Assembly: GCA_965261595.1 (NCBI GenBank)
Contig: CBDHDG010000007.1
Location: forward strand, 576,001 to 640,000
Reading direction: 5' to 3'
DNA from: a bacterium
Lineage (GTDB): Bacteria > UBA8248 > JACPRG01 > G963555815
DNA: 64,000 nucleotides
Shown here: one piece after another, positions 41,771 through 52,618 of the stretch
Layout: every line of letters starts with the position of its first letter
Numbering within the stretch: position 1 is the stretch's first letter
Translations under genes and position numbers: made by a program
The notes under the pieces: generated by a model
Databases searched by the model: none
What the model saw: only the letters and a program-made list of their open reading frames with translations
What the model was told of the DNA's origin: nothing

Positions 41771-42454
41771 GTGACTTTGGCCACTTTGCAACCTTTGCAG
41801 AAAAAGCTGCTTTCAGAAAACGTGGTGGGGGCCATCCGGACCGCCATCTTGAACCGGGATTTGGAGATGGGCCAACGGCTGGTGGAGACCGAGCTGGCCG
41901 AGCAGTTGCGCGTCAGCCGCGGCCCCATCCGGGAGGCCCTTCGCCTTCTGGCGGCCGAGGGCCTGGTGCTCATCAACGCCCATCGGGGGACCTTCGTCCT
42001 CAAGCCCACGGAAGTGGACGTGGAAGAGATCTACAGCCTGCGCGAAACCCTGGAGGTCCTGGCGATTCAGCGGGTCGTGCGGCTGGCCTCCGATGAGGAG
42101 GTCGACTCGCTCGGCGCCATCGGAGAACGATTCAATGTCGTTGCGCCGGGAAAAAATGTCAGCCAGCTTGTCGAGCTGGACATGGAGTTCCACGGCCGGC
42201 TGTTCCATCTCGCCCGGCATCGGCGGGTTCTGAATAACTGGTCCGCTCTCCAGTCGCAGGTCCGTCTGTGCATCGCCGCCAGTATGGATCAGCATGAGAA
42301 ACGTCCGATCTCGTTCCTCGGACAGGACCATGCGGTGATCGTTCAGGCCGTCCGGGACCGCGACGCCGAGACCGCCGGCCGCCTGCTGGGCCAGCACATC
42401 CAAAAGGGGGCCGAATTCGTCCGGAGGGCGATGCAATCCGTCTCGAAGTCGTAG
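41771..42454 (+). CDS. GntR/FCD family transcriptional regulator
   Basis: GQRLVETELAEQLRVSRGPIREAL; DMEFH. Confidence 0.92.
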   Translation: MTLATLQPLQKKLLSENVVGAIRTAILNRDLEMGQRLVETELAEQLRVSRGPIREALRLLAAEGLVLINAHRGTFVLKPTEVDVEEIYSLRETLEVLAIQRVVRLASDEEVDSLGAIGERFNVVAPGKNVSQLVELDMEFHGRLFHLARHRRVLNNWSALQSQVRLCIAASMDQHEKRPISFLGQDHAVIVQAVRDRDAETAGRLLGQHIQKGAEFVRRAMQSVSKS

Positions 42455-42557
42455 GGACCCCCGGGTCTTCTCCGCGCGGGCATTCCGATGCCGCCGGTCG
42501 ATTGGGCCGGAAGAAAGAGATTCGAGGTTCAAAGCAAGACAAAGGGAGTGAGTTGCC

Positions 42558-43451
42558 ATGCTGAGCGCGGAAACACTTCGGGGCGTTTATTCAGCCATCG
42601 TGACGTCCTTCCAAGGGGATGAGACGCTCGACGAGGGGGCGCTCCGCAAGCAGACAGAGTACGTCATCGAGAACGGCGTCCACGCCATCATGTCCACGGG
42701 CGGGACGGGCGAGTTCCCCCACATGACCCGGGAAGAGAGAAAAGCGGCCAATGCCGTCATCACGGACCAGGCGGCCGGCCGGATCCCGATCATCGCCGGA
42801 ACGGCGGGATGCAGCACGCGGGAAGCCGTCTTTCTGTCCCAGGACGCCCAGGATGCGGGCGCGGCGGCCGTCATCCTCACCCCGACCTACTACTTCAAGA
42901 TTCCCGAGGAGGGGCTGAAGCGGCACTTCTTCGACGTGGCCGAAGCCCTGGACATTCCGGTCGTGATTTACAACAATCCGCTTTACACGGGCAATCCCAT
43001 GTCGCCGTCTCTCATGGCGGAAATCATGGAGCACCGGAACATCATCGGCGGAAAGCTGAGTCAGGACGACATGGGGCAGCTTGTCGAGACCCTCCGGATC
43101 ACCCGCGGCCGGGTGTCCGTGAACACCGGGATCGACAGCCAGTTCTACCCGGCCCTCTGCGTAGGCTCGCGGGGGATATTCTCCACGGCCTCCTGTGTCA
43201 TCCCCCGGCAGATGGCGGACATCTACGACCACTTCCTCGCGGGCCGTCACGAAGAAGCCCGCGAGCTCCACATGAAGGTCCAGGTCCTCAACCGCTTCCT
43301 CGAGTACGACCCCGGATACGTCGCGCCCGCCAAGGAAGCGCTGGCCATGCTGGGCATCCCCTGCGGCGCCGCCCGCAAACCGTTGCCGCCCCTCACGGAC
43401 GAGCAGCGCGCGGGCGTGAAAGCCGCCCTGCAAGCGCTGGGCATGCTCTGA
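42558..43451 (+). CDS. Dihydrodipicolinate synthase (DapA/NAL) family aldolase
   Basis: GGTGE, PTYY, YNNP, Schiff-base K in GGKLS. Confidence 0.9.
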   Translation: MLSAETLRGVYSAIVTSFQGDETLDEGALRKQTEYVIENGVHAIMSTGGTGEFPHMTREERKAANAVITDQAAGRIPIIAGTAGCSTREAVFLSQDAQDAGAAAVILTPTYYFKIPEEGLKRHFFDVAEALDIPVVIYNNPLYTGNPMSPSLMAEIMEHRNIIGGKLSQDDMGQLVETLRITRGRVSVNTGIDSQFYPALCVGSRGIFSTASCVIPRQMADIYDHFLAGRHEEARELHMKVQVLNRFLEYDPGYVAPAKEALAMLGIPCGAARKPLPPLTDEQRAGVKAALQALGML

Positions 43452-43505
43452 GACCCGAATCGACTCTCCCCGGTCCGAGAAGAGACCGGCGGGGGAACGC
43501 GCCCG

Positions 43506-44729
43506 GTGAGTCCTAAGCTTCCGCCGATCGATCCGGATTACACCGTCGGACTCCTGACCGATTTGGTCCGGATCAACAGCGTCAACCCGATGACCTCCCA
43601 GGGGGCCGCGGCTTCGGATGGCCCGGGACCGCCCGGAGAATCCCGGATCGCGGCCCGGTTGGCCGAGGCCATGATGGACCTCGGGGCCGAAGTCGAGATC
43701 ACGCCCGCCGATGAGGCGGGAGAGGAGGCCGACCGGCGGCCGAACGTCATGGGCCGTTGGCCGGGAGAGGGGCGGGGGGCGCGGCCCGGTCCGGAGATCG
43801 TTCTCTGCTCTCACCTGGACACCGTCGGGGTGGCGGGCATGGAGGCCCCCTTCGATCCCGCCGTCCGGGACGGTCGGGTCTTCGGCCGGGGGTCCCTCGA
43901 CGCCAAGGGCCAGTTGGTGATGTTCCTGGCCGCCCTCCACGCCGCGCGGAAGATGGAGGAGCCGCTTCCAGCGAACGTGACGATCGCCGCCGTCAGCGAC
44001 GAGGAAGACCAGAGCGTCGGGGCGCGAAGCATTTTAAAAACGCTTCAGGGGGATTTTTGCATCATCGGGGAGCCGACCGGTCTGGACCTGGTCCTGGCGC
44101 ATAAAGGCTTCTGCTGGATCGAGATCGAGACGTTCGGCAGGGCGGTCCACGGCAGCGTTCCCGAACAGGGAATAGACGCCATCGCCAAGATGGCCGAGGT
44201 CATCCGGGCCGTCGAGGGATTGAAACCGTCTTTGAGGGAGCGCGTCCATCCGCTGCTCGATCACCCCATGATCCACATGGGCGTCATCGAGGGGGGCTCG
44301 GGCGTCAGCACGGTCCCCGACCATTGCCGCCTGACCCTGGAGGTGAGGATGTGTTTGCGGGAGGAGGCCGAGGGAATTTTCGCGGAAATTCGTGATATCC
44401 TGCGTCGCCTCTCGGGGGTCGACCCGGACCTGAAGGCCGAGGCCCGGCTGGGCGTCGTCCGCCAACCCATGGAAATCGATCCGGATCATCCCCTGGTGTC
44501 GGGACTCGCCGCCGCCGTGGAGGCCGCGCTCGGCAAGCCGCCCGCCAGAAACGTCATGGGGGCGTGGACGGACGCCGGGTATTTCGCGGAGAAGATCCCC
44601 ACCGTGGTCTTCGGACCGGGCGACCTGGGCCTCGCCCACTCCAAGGAAGAATTCGTCCCCATCGAAGAGATCGTCCGGGGTGCCGCCGCCGTTCTGCGGT
44701 TATTGACTTCTCCTCCCACAATGGAATGA
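43506..44729 (+). CDS. M20 family (ArgE/DapE-like) metallohydrolase
   Basis: SHLDTV, GRGSLDAKG, DEE, GEPT, AHSKEE. Confidence 0.9.
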   Translation: MSPKLPPIDPDYTVGLLTDLVRINSVNPMTSQGAAASDGPGPPGESRIAARLAEAMMDLGAEVEITPADEAGEEADRRPNVMGRWPGEGRGARPGPEIVLCSHLDTVGVAGMEAPFDPAVRDGRVFGRGSLDAKGQLVMFLAALHAARKMEEPLPANVTIAAVSDEEDQSVGARSILKTLQGDFCIIGEPTGLDLVLAHKGFCWIEIETFGRAVHGSVPEQGIDAIAKMAEVIRAVEGLKPSLRERVHPLLDHPMIHMGVIEGGSGVSTVPDHCRLTLEVRMCLREEAEGIFAEIRDILRRLSGVDPDLKAEARLGVVRQPMEIDPDHPLVSGLAAAVEAALGKPPARNVMGAWTDAGYFAEKIPTVVFGPGDLGLAHSKEEFVPIEEIVRGAAAVLRLLTSPPTME

Positions 44730-44736
44730 ACCGGAA

Positions 44737-45870
44737 ATGAGCGAAACGAAAAGTCCCGTCGGCGAAATCCTGCGCAGAGGCATGGAGTCCCTTTCCCCGC
44801 TGGCGCCGATTGCCGACGCGGCGGAGGTGAAGCGAAGGTCCGGCCGGGAGGTGGCCCGCATCGGGACCAACGAGAACCCGATGGCCCCATCCCCGGCGGC
44901 CGTCGCGGCGGCCGGGCGGGCGCTCCAGGAGCCCAACCGCTATCCCGACCCGATGAGCCGAGAGCTTCGGGAGGCCATCGGAGCTCATCACGGCCTGACG
45001 GCCGGGCACGTCTTCGTGGGCAACGGGGGCGATGAGGTCATTTCGGTCTTTTCCCGCGCCCTCCTCAACGAAGAGGACGAGGTCCTCATCCCCTGGCCGG
45101 CCTTCTCGACGTATGTGGTCACCGCCCAGGTGGCGGGGGCGCAAGTGATCCTCAGTCCGCTGAAGGACCACGCCATCGACGTGGACGACGTCCTGTCCCG
45201 AATCACGGACCGGACGAAGCTCCTTTATCTCTGCAATCCCAACAACCCGACCGCGACGATGCTGGCCCCGGAGGACTTCGAGCGGATCGCCGCGGCCGTT
45301 CCCGCGCGCGCCGTCGTCATTTCCGATGAGGCCTACCGGGATTTTGTGGAGGACGAGGTCCCCTATGCCGACACCGTGGGCCGGCTCCGGAGGGGGGACG
45401 CCCCGCATCTGCTGATCGTCAAGACCTTCTCCAAGGTCTACGCGCTGGCGGGGTTGCGCGTGGGCTACCTCCTGGGCGATCCCGAGGTGATCGCCCACCT
45501 GTTCCGCGCCAAGGAGTTCTTCAACGTCAACCGGGTCGCCCAGGCGGCGGCCCAAGCGGCGCTGGAGGATGAGGAACACTATCAAAAGAGCCGCGCGTTC
45601 ATCATCGGGGAGCGCAGATACATCGAAGCCGAGATCAGAGAGCGGGGTCTTCGATACGTCCCGTCGCAGACCAATTTCATTCTGATCGAGATCGGCGGAC
45701 AGGATGAGGCCGACGCGGTGTTCGAAAGGCTCCTGGACCGGGGGATCCTGGCCCGCGCCGGAAAGGGATTCGGGGCGCCCGGAACGGTCCGTATCTCAAT
45801 CGGAACGCGCGAGGAGAACGAGCGGGTCCTGGCGGTGTTGATTGAAGGCCACACATCACGAGGGCCTTGA
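44737..45870 (+). CDS. hisC: Histidinol-phosphate aminotransferase family
   Basis: NENP, RYPDP, GNGGDE, CNPNNPT, DEAY, TFSKVYALAGLRVGY. Confidence 0.85.
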   Translation: MSETKSPVGEILRRGMESLSPLAPIADAAEVKRRSGREVARIGTNENPMAPSPAAVAAAGRALQEPNRYPDPMSRELREAIGAHHGLTAGHVFVGNGGDEVISVFSRALLNEEDEVLIPWPAFSTYVVTAQVAGAQVILSPLKDHAIDVDDVLSRITDRTKLLYLCNPNNPTATMLAPEDFERIAAAVPARAVVISDEAYRDFVEDEVPYADTVGRLRRGDAPHLLIVKTFSKVYALAGLRVGYLLGDPEVIAHLFRAKEFFNVNRVAQAAAQAALEDEEHYQKSRAFIIGERRYIEAEIRERGLRYVPSQTNFILIEIGGQDEADAVFERLLDRGILARAGKGFGAPGTVRISIGTREENERVLAVLIEGHTSRGP

Positions 45871-46185
45871 TGCGGGGGGGGCGCTTGCGTGCCGACCAAA
45901 CTGGGCGCTTGCGCGCCGGCCAAGCTGCGGATGGAGGGGTTGTGCTTATTACAATCTCCTCTGGCGCACGGTTGTCCGGTTCGTCTCAAAAGGTAAGCGC
46001 ACGAGTGCGGAAATCCAGACACCGAGTGGCCGCCCCAACGTCATTAGGCGATAGTGTGCTTTGCACACTATCGCAAAAACTGACGCTTTGGCCGGATGCT
46101 GCGGCTGCCCTAGGCAGACGGGCATCCGGCCAAAGACACAAGCCATCAAGGGCCACAGCCGACCGGTACAGCCAATCCAACACCC

Positions 46186-46272
46186 GCCCCGGTAAGGCTA
46201 AAGCCAGAGGCTTGGCCGCCGAAAGTTTTTCGGGGGGGTCCAGGGGGGGCGGTTTTTCAAAAAAGCCCCCCC
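46186..46272. repeat. Modular hairpin repeat
   Basis: GGTAAGGCTAAAGCC-AGA-GGCTTGGCC...GGGGGGTCCAGGGGGGGCGGTTTTTCAAAAAAGCCCCC. Confidence 0.65.
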
Positions 46273-46294
46273 TGGGAGGTGGACGGGAGAAGGT

Positions 46295-47689
46295 ATGAAC
46301 GCGACACCGCCTGATCCGCTCAAAGGGTATCGGGGACGCGCCCTGGAGGCGTTGAAGTCCTTCGGCGTGCGAGTGTGGAGCGAGGTCGAAGCCGAGACCA
46401 AGCGCGGGAAGTTTCACGGGATCATCCTGCCCCGCGCCGAACAGGCCGACGATCGGCACATCGTCCTGAAGCTCCCCACCGGATACAACGTCGGCGTCTC
46501 GGCCGAAAGCCTCCTGGACCTGCGGGAGGTCGGTTACCGGGAAGCCCACTACCAGATCCCCGAGAAAGAGTTCCCGACCGACCCGTCGAAGCCCGACGTG
46601 ACGCTCCTCGGGACGGGCGGGACGATCGCCAGCCGGCTGGACTACCGGACCGGGGCCGTCATCCCGGCCTTCTCGCCGGGGGAGCTCTACGGAGCCGTTC
46701 CGGAGCTGGCCGACATCTGCAACCTCAAGACCATCAAGCTGTACGGCGTATTCAGCGAGAACATCAGGCCCGAGCACTGGATCGGGACGGCGCGCGCCAT
46801 CGAGCGGGAGATCACACACGGGGTGGACGGGATCGTCGTCGGACACGGCACCGACACGATGCACTACACGGCGGCGGCCCTGACCTTCATGGTCCAGGAC
46901 CCGCCGGTCCCCATCGTCCTGGTCGGCTCGCAGAGATCGAGCGACCGGCCGAGCTCGGACGCGGCCCTCAACCTCATTCACGCCACCCACGCCGCCGCCC
47001 GGGGAAAGATCGCGGAGGTCATGGTCTGTATGTTCGGCCCCACCAGCGACGCCTACGCCCTGCTCCACCGGGGGGTCCGGGTCCGGAAGATGCACAGCAG
47101 CTACCGCTCGACCTTCCGGACACTCGGCGACACGCCCCTGGCCAAAATCGAGCGTGACGTCCTGACGTCCATCAAGACCGACTGGCGGCCGAGGAGGGAG
47201 GACCGGAAGGTCCGCGTCGAGACCCGGTTCGAGGAGCGGGTCGCCATCCTCTACTACTACCCCAACATGCATCCCGACGTGCTCGAGGCCTTCATCGACA
47301 ATGGATACAAGGGCATCGTCATCGCCGGCACGGGGTTGGGACACGTCAATAAGCCCCTTTACCCCGCCTTGGAGAAGGCCCGGGACGCGGGAATCCCGGT
47401 GTTCATGACCGTCCAGACCCTTTGGGGATACACACAGATGTACGTCTACGACTCGGGGCGCGACATCCTGGAGCGGGGGGTGATCCCGCTCGGCAACATG
47501 CTCCCCGAAGTGGCCTACGTGAAGCTCGGCTGGGCGCTCGGCCAAACGGACGACCCGGAGGAAGTGAAACGAATCATGCTCACCCCGGTTTCGGACGAGA
47601 TCACCGACCGGGAGCCCCCCAACGGCTACGTCATCCTCCAGGGCGGCCTCCCCGAGGTGGACGAGTTCCTCGGCCGGTATTGGAAATAG
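46295..47689 (+). CDS. gatD: Glu-tRNA(Gln) amidotransferase subunit D
   Basis: N-terminal GatD domain (HIVLKLPTGYNVG) plus asparaginase core GTGGTIASRLDYRTGAV, HGTDT, GSQRSSDRPSSDA, RKMHSS. Confidence 0.92.
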   Translation: MNATPPDPLKGYRGRALEALKSFGVRVWSEVEAETKRGKFHGIILPRAEQADDRHIVLKLPTGYNVGVSAESLLDLREVGYREAHYQIPEKEFPTDPSKPDVTLLGTGGTIASRLDYRTGAVIPAFSPGELYGAVPELADICNLKTIKLYGVFSENIRPEHWIGTARAIEREITHGVDGIVVGHGTDTMHYTAAALTFMVQDPPVPIVLVGSQRSSDRPSSDAALNLIHATHAAARGKIAEVMVCMFGPTSDAYALLHRGVRVRKMHSSYRSTFRTLGDTPLAKIERDVLTSIKTDWRPRREDRKVRVETRFEERVAILYYYPNMHPDVLEAFIDNGYKGIVIAGTGLGHVNKPLYPALEKARDAGIPVFMTVQTLWGYTQMYVYDSGRDILERGVIPLGNMLPEVAYVKLGWALGQTDDPEEVKRIMLTPVSDEITDREPPNGYVILQGGLPEVDEFLGRYWK

Positions 47690-47774
47690 CGGCCTGCGCG
47701 CTGACTCGTCTCGACGATTGTGTTAGTAAAAAGCGGATTTCAATGGAAAATGACTTGCTGAACCATTCGTCCGA

Positions 47775-47859
47775 GGGGCTGGTACGGCGCCCGGCCCCTA
47801 CATTCTGGTAGCGTAGAATCCTTCCACAGATGTAGGGGAGGGGCTCCGCACCCTCCCCC
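47775..47859. repeat. GTAG-type REP pair between gatD and gatE
   Basis: GGGGCTGGTACGGCGCCCGGCCCCTAC and GTAGGGGAGGGGCTCCGCACCCTCCCC. Confidence 0.65.
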
Positions 47860-47882
47860 ATCACTTCCGCACTGACTGTCGT

Positions 47883-49842
47883 TCAGGTGGTCGGGTCAGC
47901 CGGCCGCGCGGCCTCCCACCGTTCTTCGAGCATGGCCCGAATCTCCCGTCCCTCCCTCCGGCCCCGCACCCGCTTCATCACGAATCCCATGAGGTAAGCG
48001 ACGCGGTTCTCATCGGCGGGGTTGTGCATGGGGGCCTTCCCACGTGAGGCAATGACCTCATCGATGGTCTCCCGCATCTCCTCGTCCGTCAGGGGAGACA
48101 AACCCGCGCCGTTCAGCGCCGCGTCCACTGTCAGACCGGGAGAGCTGGCCAGCCTTTCCAGAAGGCGCGGGATCGCCTCCCGGCCGAACCGGCCGTCTCG
48201 GTAGGCCCGGAAGAGGTCCACCCATTGCTCATCGCCGCAGGTTGTCAGGTCGGCCCCGCCCCCTGCCCCTTCCCCTCTTCCCCCGGCCGCCAGGGCCTTC
48301 CAATCGTGGACCAGCGTGATCCCCGCGAGGAGAGGCGGGACGCCCGTCTCCTCCATGATCCGGTCCAACAGGTTCCCCCGCGTCGAGAAGGCGAGGGCCT
48401 CGATGACGTCCGGCGGCAGCCCCCAGGCCCGGTAGCGGGCCTCCCGCTCCCAGGGCGGCTTCGATCCGGGCGATTCGCTCTTCCTCGACGGGAATCAGCG
48501 GAAGGTCCGTATCGGGATACATCCGGTCCGGTCCGGGAAGGACCCGCTCGAAATCGGTCGTGCCGTCTTTCAGCGCCTGGCGCGTTTCCATTGGGATTCC
48601 CACGGCCGCCTCCCGGCAGCGGGTCTCGATCTCCCGGACGGCCGTTTTGACATCTTCCTCCGGCCCCCAGACGATCAGGAGGGCGTCGGCTGAATCGGCC
48701 CCCGTGACTTCGGCCGCCGCATCCCAGGCGCCGAGGCTCAGCCGCTCCGGATGGCGCGGGTCGGAGGCCTCCCGGCAGAACAGGACAGGCGGCTGGTCGA
48801 GGCAGGCGATGACCCGGACCCGTCCCGCCACGTCCCGCAGGAAGGGCACGCTCTCGCCGCCGGGACCCTCCTGAAGGGACCGGTCGAGGATGCCCGCAAA
48901 GCGCGGAACCCGAACGGCCCACACCGCCCGACCCGCCGCGCGGGCCTTTCGCAGGATGGGATGATCCAATGAGGCGGCCGGCGCCGGGGCGGCGCGGGCG
49001 GAAATGTCCTCGGCCCCGATGCCGCGGCGTTTCAGCTCCTCGCGGATCTCCAGGAGCCCCTTCTGGCGGAGGGCCTCGTTGTGGGTCAGCGGCACGAAGG
49101 CCCTTACCCGCGGGACGCCCTTGATCTCGATCCGGGGCGCTCCGTCGATGCTCACGTTCACGTCCTGGCGGACCGAGCCGATTCCCCGCCGGACCTTTCC
49201 CGTCGAGCGGAGGATTTGCCCGATGCGCCACCCCACCTCGGCCACCTCCCCGGGGGTCCGCATCTCCGGATAGGTGACCACCTCGAACAGGGGCATGCCC
49301 AGCCGGTCCGTGCGGAACGTGATCCGGTGACCCTCGTCCCTCACCTCTCGGCAGGAGTCCTCCTCGATGCTCACCTGAACCACCGGAACCGTGCGGTCCG
49401 CCAGGGGGATTTCTCCTTCCACGCCGATGATGGCGGTTCGCTGAAAGCCGGTCGGAATGCTCCCGTCCAGGTACTGTTTCCGGGTGATGTGAATTTCCCC
49501 CACGATGCTGGAGCGGAACAGCAACGCCATCTCCAGGACGATATCGATCGTCTCGGGGTCCGGCGGAAACGGGGGCGTGTCGTCCATCTCATAGGTGCAA
49601 ACCGTGTCGTTGCGGACCTGATAGACAACCTCCTTGCGGGTCTTGAACTCCATGAGGGCGGTGCCGTCGTATTCGCCCAGCTCCGACAGGGTCGGCCGCA
49701 TGTGGCGAAGGAGCTCGGCGTCGTAACGCGGCGAATACCGGCCCGCCGGGCATCGGCAGAAAAGCTTCCGATCCGTCAGGAGTTGATAATGGACTTCGAG
49801 GCCCGAGCGAAAACCCAGGGCCTGATAATCGAGCTTCCGCAC
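47883..49842 (-). CDS. gatE: Glu-tRNA(Gln) amidotransferase subunit E (one frame break ~48455)
   Basis: DYQALGFRSGLEVHYQL, KLFCRCP, DGSIPTGFQRT, DRLGMPL, RRGIGSVRQDVNVSI, insertion domain, RVLPGPDRMYPDTDLP, C-terminal LMGFVMKRVRGR. Confidence 0.88.
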
Positions 49843-50094
49843 CGCATCGTTCCGAATAGAGGGAAATTCGAAAGGGAGAGATGTCTCGTTACGCGCCGAT
49901 TCTAATCCATCCCGGCGCCCGGCTCAAACCCGGGCTTCGGCGGCCGGGCCGGGTTTTCACCCCGCGGCGAACCGCGTGACTCCGGGGACATTCACGATTA
50001 TATTGAAGGTTTCGCAACACGTCCCGGACCGTCCGCGCACCAAGAGCCGCGGCGGTCGCCCAATCAGCTCCAATCCATTGGCAAGGGGAGAAAC

Positions 50095-51042
50095 ATGCAG
50101 CTTCTGACCTACAAAACGGACGGCGGGGAGAAAGTGGGTCTTCATGTTCAGGGAACGGTGTATGACATTCAGGCTTGTCTGGAGGAGGCGGGGGCGGACC
50201 TGGGCGCGTCTGTTCCTGGAGCCCTTCCGGACCTGAAGGGAATGATCGGCGCGTGGGACCGGTGGGAAGGCCCGCTCCGCGCGCTGGAAGAGAAATTGGA
50301 CGACTTCCGGGATCGGATTGCCGATTCCGCCCGACAACCGGTGCATAAGATCCCTTTCCTTCCGCCGATTCCCCGGCCCGGAAAGAACCCGGTCATGCTC
50401 GGCCGCAACTATCAGGCTCACGCCGACGAGGGCGCCCGGGTCTATGGCCCGGAGATCGGCTCCTCCGTCATCGAGCACCCCATCTATTTCACCAAGGCGG
50501 CCACCAGCCTCATCGGACACCGGGAGGGCGTCATCCACCACGCCGTCACGAATGAGCTGGACTACGAGGTGGAGCTGGCCGTTGTCATGGGCCGCGGCGG
50601 GCGGGCGATTCCGCCCGAGAAGGTCTTCGACCATGTTTTCGGCTATACGGTCTGCAACGATATCTCGGCCCGGGACCTCCAGCACAGACACAACCAGTGG
50701 TTTCTCGGAAAGTCCCTGGACGCCTCCTTCCCCATCGGTCCCTGGATTGTGACGAAAGACGAGATCCCCAATCCGCATTCACTGAACGTCGCCTGCCGCG
50801 TCAACGGGGAGACCCGCCAGGACGCCAACACTTCGGATTTTATTTTCGACATCCCGACCTGCGTATCCGTCTTTTCGCAGGGCGTCTCCTTCGAGGCCGG
50901 AGACATCCTCGCGACGGGGACGCCCGAGGGTTGCGGATTCGGGCTGGACCCTCCCCGGTTTCTGAAACCCGGAGATGTCGTGGAGTGCGAAGTCGAAGGG
51001 GTGGGTTGCCTCGTGAATCCGGTGGTCGCCCCGCCCGCGTAG
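50095..51042 (+). CDS. Fumarylacetoacetate hydrolase family protein
   Basis: GRNY, DYEVELAVV, NDISARD, GKSLD, ATGTPEG. Confidence 0.93.
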   Translation: MQLLTYKTDGGEKVGLHVQGTVYDIQACLEEAGADLGASVPGALPDLKGMIGAWDRWEGPLRALEEKLDDFRDRIADSARQPVHKIPFLPPIPRPGKNPVMLGRNYQAHADEGARVYGPEIGSSVIEHPIYFTKAATSLIGHREGVIHHAVTNELDYEVELAVVMGRGGRAIPPEKVFDHVFGYTVCNDISARDLQHRHNQWFLGKSLDASFPIGPWIVTKDEIPNPHSLNVACRVNGETRQDANTSDFIFDIPTCVSVFSQGVSFEAGDILATGTPEGCGFGLDPPRFLKPGDVVECEVEGVGCLVNPVVAPPA

Positions 51043-51095
51043 ACCCCCGGCTCCGCTCGCGGGCGCCCCGAAGTGGAGGAAGCCGGATGGCGGAC

Positions 51096-51138
51096 AAAAA
51101 AACCGGAGCGGCCAGCCAGGCCGCTCCGGTTTTTTTTT
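51096..51138. terminator. Bidirectional intrinsic terminator
   Basis: A7-CCGGAGCGGCC-loop-GGCCGCTCCGG-T9 between convergent genes. Confidence 0.85.
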
Positions 51139-51160
51139 ATGAGGCAGACTTACACGTGGT

Positions 51161-52618
51161 TTAGAAGAACCACTGAAGCTTCCAAATCGCCTGCCAGGAG
51201 TTGTCGTTGTTGTTGACCGCCCGGTTGGTTCCACCAGCCACCTGGAGGTCATTCGCCACCGGCGTCCGCAGCTCGCCGTAGTCGCCGGCGATCAGGTAAT
51301 CAAATCCACCGGTCACCGAAACGCCCTTGTAAAGCGTCCAGGTCGCGCTGAAATCGAGTTCCGTGTCGATGTAACGATTACTCTTGAAAGGCGTGGTCCC
51401 CGTCGCCGTCAGGTCCGGACGGGAGTGCGCCGATTAGATGGCCCCGACCGTTCCCTGAACGAGAAGGCTTTTCAGCACCCGGTAGGAACCGTCAAAGGAC
51501 ACCACCGAGACGCCGTTGCCACGCGAGTACCGGCCACCCGTTCCGCCGGTGTTCCCGCCGATGTTCCGCGCGCCGACCGTCAAGGTGTCGTTGTACTTAT
51601 CGCCGAACCAGAGGTCCGTCGGGCCCTTGGAACGCGCGTCGCACCCGCTCTCCCCGGTGATCGGCGAGCAGCCGACCGCGAAGAACTGGTCCTCATTGCT
51701 ATCGTTCTGGTTGGTGTCGCCCGAGGACATCACATAGTTCACCGACAGGTTCGCGGCGCCCAGCGTCACACCACCCTGCAGCCAGAGCACATAGGCGCTG
51801 ACGTCGATGTCGGCCGTGGCGTCCGTGGCGACGCGATCGATTTCGCCGCTCTGGTACACGAAGTCGGCCTTCCCGCTGAAGTTCTTGTAGCGGGCCGAAC
51901 CCGAAATCGCCGGATACCACGACGTGATCTTCTCGGACCGCGTGGCCGTCCGGTTTTGCTCGTGGAACACCACGTACGGCATGATCCGAACGCCCTTCAT
52001 GGGCGAGAACGGCAGCTTGCCGATGTAGACGTCGTCGTCATCGGCGAAGTCCAGACCGAGCGTGCCCGAGGAGGTCTCGTCCCGCTTGTAGACCTCGAAC
52101 CGGGGCTTGAAAATGCCGACCGTTCCAAAGAGCTGGATGCCGAACTCACGCAGGTTGGGCAGACGGCCCACCAGCCCGCGGGGCAGGAAGACGTTGTCGC
52201 GGCCAAACTTGATGAACCAGGGACCCGGCACCATGGGGAGCTTCACCTGGAGGTTGTACACGACGACATCCACATCGGTCCGGCCCGCGATTGCCAGGAA
52301 TCCCGTCCCGAAGTTTACGCCGTCGTCACCGCCAATCTGGTTAAAGTTCCCGATGTCCAACTGGAAGAACATCCGGGCCTTGTCTCCCATCGTCGAGACG
52401 ATGTAGGGACGGAAGACATGATCGTAGTACCGCCACTCATCCCGGCCGAGATCGCCGGGAGCGCCCTTGACCGTATCCAACCGGTCCTGGTTGTTGGAGG
52501 CGATGCCGCGAAAGCGGAACCAACCGCCGAACTTGAAATCCACCTGTGCCGTTGCGGGGACGACGAGCGCCACCATCAACGCAAAGGCAATCAATCCTAA
52601 GGAAATTTTCCGGGTCAT
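51161..52618 (-). pseudogene. Outer-membrane beta-barrel (porin-like) with an in-frame TAA at 51434-51436
   Basis: Signal peptide (ATA/QVDF), amphipathic beta pattern; frame continues past the stop to ...WQAIWKLQWFF* with terminal Phe. Confidence 0.8.

Follow-up and report, generated by a model that had tools for sequence, protein, structure and literature searches.

In archaeal GatDE, the GatE subunit binds tRNA mischarged with an acidic amino acid, whose side-chain carboxyl it phosphorylates, and GatD, an asparaginase-type glutaminase, frees ammonia from Gln or Asn, which passes through a tunnel to GatE, where the amide is made. Bacterial GatCAB has the same chemistry, with a tRNA-dependent kinase/amidase and an ammonia-releasing subunit. 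GatB and GatE are paralogues with a GatB_N cradle and a YqeY-like tail in common, and differ in that GatE has an insertion; the ammonia donor is an asparaginase in one system (GatD) and an amidase in the other (GatA). The present analysis concerns a gatD and gatE pair at 46295-49842 of a 64,000-nucleotide stretch (the window; G000:C7:576001-640000) of a bacterial genome of 6.17 Mb in 7 contigs, which was 96.7% complete with 5.57% estimated contamination. In their available portions, PMC2811023, PMC2330236 and PMC9499178 describe GatDE as restricted to archaea, and reviews give it as archaea-only, yet hundreds of bacterial species have it by public annotation. In the literature searched, no paper was found that treats GatDE of bacteria. 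The literature, not the window, is thus where the gap lies; the window's pair is an ordinary member of a large annotated bacterial clade.

The pair is probably an accessory, dispensable second tRNA-dependent amidotransferase which has long been resident and is now being lost, with gatE broken in the window's genome. It resembled archaeal GatDE (2D6F of M. thermautotrophicus and 1ZQ1 of P. abyssi) in its subunits and in their domain order, with an N-terminal domain and an asparaginase core in GatD, and cradle, AspRS-like insertion, helical and YqeY-like tail domains in GatE, and also in the GatE Mg2+ ligands and the GatD Thr and Thr-Lys-Asp motif stretches. It differed from archaeal GatDE in being hosted by a bacterium with GluRS of the bacterial type only and with U1-A72 in tRNA(Gln), in not keeping the GMGAMG stretch of GatE, in standing beside a GatCAB which must already serve both Gln and Asn, and in the frameshift of gatE. 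Its coexistence with GatCAB, its convergent gene order and a fresh gatE deletion alongside intact, near-identical alleles are its points of interest.

The gatD gene (46295-47689, + strand) was intact. Its product of 464 amino acids had the N-terminal domain and asparaginase-type glutaminase core that an earlier reading of the window, made from its letters only (hereafter the sequence-only reading), had ascribed to it, as determined from the open reading frame (ORF), TIGR02153 and Pfam (GatD_N 29-72, Asparaginase 102-289, Asparaginase_C 315-428). It scored 507.2 bits with the GatD equivalog model TIGR02153 (cut-off 324) and 506.2 bits with NF003217 (cut-off 310), versus 389.7 bits with the type I and 160.1 bits with the type II asparaginase model. 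Whole-length alignments were obtained with the GatD of M. thermautotrophicus (2D6F_A, 438 bits) and of P. abyssi (1ZQ1_A, 394.5 bits). The TGGT, HGTDT and RKMH stretches, which presumably carry the GatD Thr and the Thr-Lys-Asp triad, were identical to those of 2D6F_A. For GatD, a catalytic Thr nucleophile and the Thr-Lys-Asp triad are reported in the available part of PMC2330236.

The full span of gatE (47883-49842, - strand) was frameshifted, and a full-length GatE model match was not found in any one reading frame. The 5' part (48452-49842, - strand; GTG start; approximately 465 native residues) comprised the cradle (kinase/amidase) domain and the GatE-type insertion. The ORF that contained it (48229-49842, - strand) encoded these first approximately 465 GatE residues and then continued in the wrong frame up to a stop at 48229, so that its last approximately 72 residues were out-of-frame, of low complexity and rich in Gly, Arg and Pro. 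This ORF scored 354.4 bits with TIGR00134 (GatE; positions 2-444 of 622) and 414.6 bits with NF003107 (GatE), the latter under the cut-off of 456. The 3' part (47883-48451, - strand; stop codon 47883-47885), out of frame with the 5' part, contained the helical domain and the YqeY-like tail. This tail, read in the stop-to-stop ORF 47883-48494, matched GatB_Yqey with 43.1 bits and the GatE models over positions 508-617 to 508-625, and it scored 34.8 bits with the tail of 1ZQ1_C. The N-terminal part of GatE scored 276.9 bits with 1ZQ1_C and 273.4 bits with 2D6F_C, versus at most 89.8 bits with GatB models (cut-offs 315-680). The GatB_N match, for a profile of 277 positions, was stretched over residues 14-457, which implies a large insertion in GatE. 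Residues H18, E160 and E187 aligned with His15, Glu157 and Glu184 of M. thermautotrophicus GatE, which, in the available part of PMC2330236, are described as binding Mg2+, with kinase and transamidase activity abolished on their mutation.

In a genome of the same genus (G001), GatE was uninterrupted, had 644 amino acids and aligned end-to-end with 1ZQ1_C (339.6 bits) and 2D6F_C (316.6 bits); its matches to GatB were weak (at most 81.5 bits), and the GatE insertion was present. Profile hidden Markov model comparison of GatD and GatE with AnsA and GatB thus agreed with the sequence-only reading. Its description of GatE stood as to the family and the insertion, and the Mg2+ ligands were kept, but the ORF that it took as GatE was incomplete, covering only model positions 2-444 of a frameshifted gene, and the archaeal tail motif was not at its aligned position. 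By these scores and motifs, the locus is assigned to the GatD/GatE family and not to AnsA/GatB. The locus would encode a bacterial-clade GatDE, a two-subunit tRNA-dependent amidotransferase, and the chemistry of bacterial GatDE, phosphorylation and then amidation with ammonia from GatD, can be assigned with confidence insofar as it follows the family.

GatCAB was complete in the window's own genome (gatA 637.8 bits, gatB 585.2 bits, gatC 105.7 bits), with gatA and gatB side by side at C6:402149-405010 and gatC at C6:746295-746570. No GlnRS over the cut-off was found in that genome, its best match (65 bits) being a GluRS, and no AsnRS over the cut-off, AsnRS having been searched in the window's own genome only. 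GluRS was of the bacterial type only. With neither GlnRS nor AsnRS, GatCAB must already supply both Gln-tRNA and Asn-tRNA, and GatDE does not provide the organism's route to Gln-tRNA, given the complete GatCAB. Both tRNA(Gln) genes (CUG and UUG anticodons) had the bacterial U1-A72 pair, as did tRNA(Asn); G1 was the first base of the genes looked at for tRNA(Glu) and tRNA(Asp). The A1-U72 pair of tRNA(Gln), which archaeal GatDE reads according to the available portions of PMC2330236 and PMC9499178, was in neither tRNA(Gln). The genome survey that the sequence-only reading proposed thus found no glnS, but gatCAB was present, GluRS was bacterial and tRNA(Gln) did not have A1:U72.

Two side observations on the host genome concern its tRNA genes and synthetases. 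The GluRS-like gene that was the best sub-threshold match to the GlnRS model (G000:C3:279286-280949) adjoined a tRNA-Gln(CUG)/tRNA-Glu(CUC) pair. ARAGORN called several over-long 'tRNAs' of 89-95 nt (Glu, Ile-tat, Lys and Pro among them; C5:360254-360345, C7:131504-131594, C6:63141-63235 and others), and at least the two Glu calls seem to be false positives within sequence that resembles a coding region.

Within the class, GatD was over the cut-off in 7/41 genomes (the window's own included). In the six relatives that had it, a full-length GatE adjoined it in convergent orientation and was intact in all six (model positions 2-615/620). GatB was over the cut-off in 39/41 class genomes, the two misses being 96% and 91% complete, and GlnRS in 0/41. 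Across the phylum, GatD was found in 9/51 genomes and in 7/15 genera, and in none of the 23 genomes of the largest genus. A bacterial class with both amidotransferases and no GlnRS (AsnRS being checked in the window's genome only) is in the same situation as many archaea; the available part of PMC2330236 asks why bacteria in such a situation encode only GatCAB. In the class, GatCAB would be the core route to Gln-tRNA and Asn-tRNA, and GatDE an accessory second amidotransferase.

The G001 genome was syntenic with the window across the whole of its 7.4-kb contig (FAA hydrolase, gatE, gatD, aminotransferase, M20 peptidase). In G006, a complete chromosome of the same family, the flanks were in order and a gatE remnant of 174 residues (model positions 60-221) lay between the FAA hydrolase and aminotransferase genes (G006:C1:3703996-3704445; L123 9799-10455), with no gatD. 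From the synteny in G001 and the remnant in G006, the GatDE pair was therefore at the locus in the ancestor of the family. It was deleted in the lineage of G006 and frameshifted in that of the window, in two independent losses. The overlap of GatDE with GatCAB fits both the patchy distribution and the two losses, and loss was presumably tolerated because GatCAB is redundant with it. Evidence of dispensability thus comprised the fresh 14-bp frameshift, the large deletion that a relative has at this locus, and the absence from most genera.

The ratio of nonsynonymous to synonymous substitution rates (dN/dS) versus G001 was 0.123 for gatD, 0.171 for the gatE core and, with small counts, 0.478 for the gatE tail part. 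Judging from the low ratios, purifying selection has acted on gatD and gatE during most of the period that followed the split from G001. The GC content of the gatD/gatE region (0.644-0.674) was close to that of the window and the contigs (0.62-0.64), as had been claimed of the neighbours. The age and amelioration that the sequence-only reading proposed were thus supported by the matching GC, by the dN/dS of 0.12-0.17 with the sister species and by the class-specific clade in the GatD tree. GatDE would have been long resident in the class under purifying selection, in a class-specific convergent arrangement, and lost piecemeal.

By DNA alignment to G001 (95.4% identity), the gatE of the window was without the 14 bp AGCCGCCCTTCCGG between two copies of the 9-mer AGCCGCCCT. 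The deletion site is at 48451-48461 (- strand), its position being ambiguous by approximately 10 nt owing to the repeat. As 14 is a multiple of three plus 2, the deletion exactly explains the +1 offset between the gatE frames. Loss of 14 bp between direct repeats of 9 bp has the pattern of a slippage deletion. Public contigs from four runs (X1, X4, X5 and X7) were aligned on 47600-49950 (2351 bases). X4, X5 and X7, from three different studies, each had one contig of approximately 8.5 kb with 6-7 single-base differences (approximately 99.7% identical), and all three carried 14 extra bases behind 48451; the gatE differences in these contigs were six, 3 synonymous and 3 nonsynonymous. The X1 contig (depth 4.2) had 0 differences, was without the 14 bases and is possibly the window's own source. 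Among the DNA runs, the fraction of sampled words of the stretch that was found was 1.00 for X2 and X3 (from the sample of X1) and 0.88-0.90 for eleven other runs. Judged by the intact allele in strains approximately 99.7% identical, the break of gatE is very recent. As a side observation, the linker of gatE had, relative to G001, an in-frame insertion of 18 bp, rich in Gly, Glu and Ala (window 48258-48275), which was common to the near-identical strains, where no indel was reported.

The same contigs bear on whether the segment could have come from a contaminating archaeon, or from a chimeric join made in assembling the genome from a metagenome. The assembly was in 7 contigs and had the contamination given above, but three other studies each gave a single contig of approximately 8.5 kb over this segment, G001 had the same gene order, G006 kept the flanks, the GC content matched, and the nearest relatives were all bacterial. 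Contamination or chimerism was accordingly rated as extremely improbable, and the bacterial setting, for which the sequence-only reading had named a sigma-54 system, an outer-membrane barrel and lipoproteins, rests here on the flanking genes, on the synteny in two relatives, on the complete GatCAB and on the bacterial-type tRNAs.

By separating the catalytic core from the tRNA-binding tail, the deletion would most likely inactivate the holoenzyme here while leaving gatD intact. Loss of activity is the most likely outcome predicted from the position of the frameshift, and a very recent 14-bp slippage deletion in gatE would be its cause. Several observations weigh against the reading of a long-resident accessory enzyme now broken in this genome, and they concern both the deletion and the substrate. 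As to the deletion, its allele was seen only in the window and in the one X1 contig, at a depth of 4.2 and possibly from the same data, so that an assembly or consensus error is possible. RNA runs contained 0.05-0.08 of the sampled words. Loss of the GatE tail need not abolish all function either: the protein P0125 (943 amino acids, one 12.8-kb contig), which belongs to the bacterial GatD clade, had the GatE cradle (GatB_N 24-304) fused to a complete GatD (488-935), with no YqeY tail detected in it, which suggests that tail-less, fused GatE-GatD forms exist in nature.

Should the 14-bp deletion have arisen artefactually in the assembly or consensus, or be a minor variant, then the organism would have an intact, working GatDE like its near-identical relatives. 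In keeping with this, all other alleles looked at were intact (the three contigs of other studies and the six relatives), and gatD was intact and the gatE fragments were without further lesion. A loss of 14 bp exactly between 9-bp direct repeats is, however, a signature of replication slippage and unlike a typical base-calling error; Logan's separate assembly of X1 gave the identical sequence with 0 differences, and X2 and X3, from the same sample, contained all the sampled words, versus 0.88-0.90 in the runs with the intact allele. An artefact or minor variant was judged unlikely on this balance. The deletion would be real in the population of the sample or, less likely, an error of the data set.

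As to the substrate, the equivalog-level scores of GatD and GatE argue for Glu-tRNA(Gln), which would be the substrate if the pair acts as its family does, and the tRNA(Gln) genes with U1-A72, instead of the A1-U72 read by archaeal GatDE, weigh on the other side. So does the tail of GatE. The GXXAXGX motif of the archaeal GatE tail, which the available part of PMC2811023 links to the rejection of Asp-tRNA(Asn), was not at the aligned position here: the GMGAMG of both solved archaeal GatE aligned with DENRVAY, and the first motif column had G in 0/60 bacterial GatE. Five genomes with GatDE from other phyla all had both GlnRS and AsnRS, and GatB was found in 0/5, so that GatDE is not simply a back-up of GatCAB there; the window's class, in contrast, pairs GatDE with GatCAB and has no GlnRS.

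On these grounds bacterial GatDE might instead amidate Asp-tRNA(Asn), or both substrates, for tRNA-dependent Asn synthesis, overlapping with GatCAB in the class. As tRNA(Gln) and tRNA(Asn) both had U1-A72, the two might be read by one enzyme that is adapted to the tRNAs of bacteria; the archaeal tail motif aligned with DENRVAY; and with GlnRS in 5/5 of the other-phylum genomes, GatDE is not needed for Gln-tRNA there. AsnA and AsnB were both below the cut-off in 3/5 of those genomes, one of which had asnA fragments with stops a few kb from gatD. Against it, AsnRS was found in 5/5, both AsnA and AsnB were over the cut-off in the other two (the cultured Marinifilaceae), and the GatE insertion, predicted by modelling to clash with the nondiscriminating AspRS (ND-AspRS; PMC2330236, available part), was present here. 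Amidation of Asp-tRNA(Asn) was rated as improbable. A broader and tentative proposal, likewise rated as improbable, was that bacterial GatDE is a functionally distinct branch rather than a copy of the archaeal Gln-tRNA enzyme, and that its substrate may be Asp-tRNA(Asn) or both tRNAs, or its action confined to particular conditions, because the discrimination motif is lost, the tRNAs have U1-A72, and GatDE occurs with GlnRS and AsnRS without GatCAB or else alongside GatCAB. Were the distinct branch true, a class with natural knock-outs beside intact, near-identical alleles would be a ready system for studying the role of a second amidotransferase. The accessory second amidotransferase, with Glu-tRNA(Gln) as its putative substrate, remained the preferred reading.

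The bacterial GatDE clade was large. A word-indexed search with GatD returned at least 8000 proteins at E ≤ 1e-40, of which the best 120 were 70-98% identical; those named among the best 120 were 'GatD' of Tectomicrobia, Nitrospinota, Acidobacteriota, KSB1, Calditrichaeota, Ignavibacteria, Myxococcota, Krumholzibacteriota and others, and the nearest named database proteins were labelled Candidatus Tectomicrobia and Nitrospinota. When one genome per species was scanned, at least 597 GatD stretches were obtained, at least 592 of them confirmed. The best 80 of the at least 597 stretches were 64-71% identical and were from bacterial records of many phyla, with the Bacteroidota Marinifilum flexuosum DSM 21950 and Labilibaculum sp. 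K2S as cultured carriers among these 80. The clade was also found in Ignavibacteria, Calditrichota, Cloacimonadota, Zixibacteria, Acidobacteriota, Planctomycetota and others. NCBI and JGI annotation already calls these bacterial proteins GatD, so that the earlier suggestion of homologues annotated in uncultured bacteria held, for at least 592 species and with cultured ones among them.

Gene order in 86 loci was gatE and then gatD on one strand in 67, convergent in 7 and other in 4, with no gatE within the fetched flank in 8. The convergent loci were six of the window's class plus L063. The window's genes were convergent as the sequence-only reading had them (46295-47689 on the + strand, gatE on the - strand), and in this the class (6/6 relatives and the window) differed from the one-strand order that was most frequent in the bacterial clade.

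GatD trees were rooted on the type I asparaginases of relatives and comprised 111 rows with FastTree and 58 rows with IQ-TREE (quick and careful searches). Only 7 'archaeal' representatives were named (Sigynarchaeota, Thermococcus, Nitrososphaerota, Bathyarchaeia, Desulfurococcaceae and two Thermoplasmatota), the others being assumed archaeal as they were outside the bacterial clade. All bacterial GatD rows were in one clade (support 100/100), which was nested inside the presumed archaeal rows with FastTree and with both quick and careful IQ-TREE; the window's class formed a class-specific clade. The bacterial clade was sister to a set of four rows that included the Sigynarchaeota (Asgard) protein (100/96), and the next branch was an unnamed representative (99/99). 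The presumed archaeal rows formed one group in 0/200 bootstrap trees. In the approximately unbiased (AU) test on the careful tree, the archaeal rows as one group had a log-likelihood (lnL) lower by 25.68 and were not rejected (p = 0.232); on the poorer quick tree, from a poor search, the constrained topology was better (p-AU 0.709). The trees favour an ancient transfer from archaea to bacteria, which would have been followed by spread among bacteria. The inter-domain transfer proposed by the sequence-only reading was thus favoured by the trees, but the AU test did not reject the alternative, and the event would not be special to this lineage but common to a large bacterial clade.

A transfer specific to this lineage, by which an archaeal route to Gln-tRNA would have replaced the bacterial route, shares with the favoured account the nesting of bacterial GatD inside archaeal rows and the bootstrap result, and it agrees with the absence of GlnRS. 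However, this genome has a complete GatCAB, an enzyme found almost throughout the class (GatB in 39/41), and GatDE is patchy and its gatE broken here. One bacterial clade extends over many phyla, so that any inter-domain event long predates this lineage, and separation of the archaeal rows from the bacterial clade was not rejected. Such a transfer was considered very improbable, and the archaeal route to Gln-tRNA envisaged by the sequence-only reading was not upheld.

Side observations were made on two other members of the GatD set. L069 (CP070751.1, 5.16 Mb, titled 'Thermoplasmata archaeon isolate bin33') had a GatD inside the bacterial clade, beside a Planctomycetota sequence; its genome (G044) had GlnRS (755 bits), AsnRS, two GatE copies and no GatB, and the archaeal label looks wrong because GlnRS is not expected in an archaeon. 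The asnA fragments of this genome (C1:3723719-3724218), with in-frame stops, were a few kb from gatD, and no intact AsnA or AsnB was found in it. P0292 (606 amino acids) was a GatD carrying an archease domain at its C-terminus (Pfam Archease 468-606), and its cluster stood beside the Sigynarchaeota GatD in the tree.

Around the pair, genes of the DHDPS family, the M20 peptidase family and the class I/II aminotransferase family were upstream of gatD, and a gene of the FAA-hydrolase family was beyond gatE. A 143-amino-acid ORF overlapping the start of gatD (45867-46298) matched no Pfam family and had no counterpart among the G001 matches, and is probably not a gene. In an Rfam scan of 42000-52000, neither gatD nor gatE had a leader RNA or T-box upstream of it, and the only match was to a snoRNA at chance level (E = 0.3).

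The spacer between gatD and gatE was of 193 nt (47690-47882) and contained an imperfect hairpin (47775-47858, no strand), made of two low-copy dispersed repeats that resemble repetitive extragenic palindromic (REP) elements, as determined from the inverted repeat, the fold and the copy counts. The 29-nt arms (47775-47803 and 47830-47858) were 79% complementary, the hairpin folded at -48.3 kcal/mol (z = -3.1), and the arms had 4 and 7 copies in the genome, themselves included. The REP elements that had been read between the genes were thus upheld as an imperfect, dispersed inverted repeat, but their arms were of low copy. The hairpin may act as a two-way terminator for the convergent genes. Upstream of gatE, a sigma-70-like promoter match (49899-49927, - strand; TTGAGC-17-TAGAAT) had 9/12 consensus positions and was 57 nt from the gatE start; it is a match to the consensus only, and two sigma-70-like sites of this kind were seen versus 0.4 expected from shuffles.

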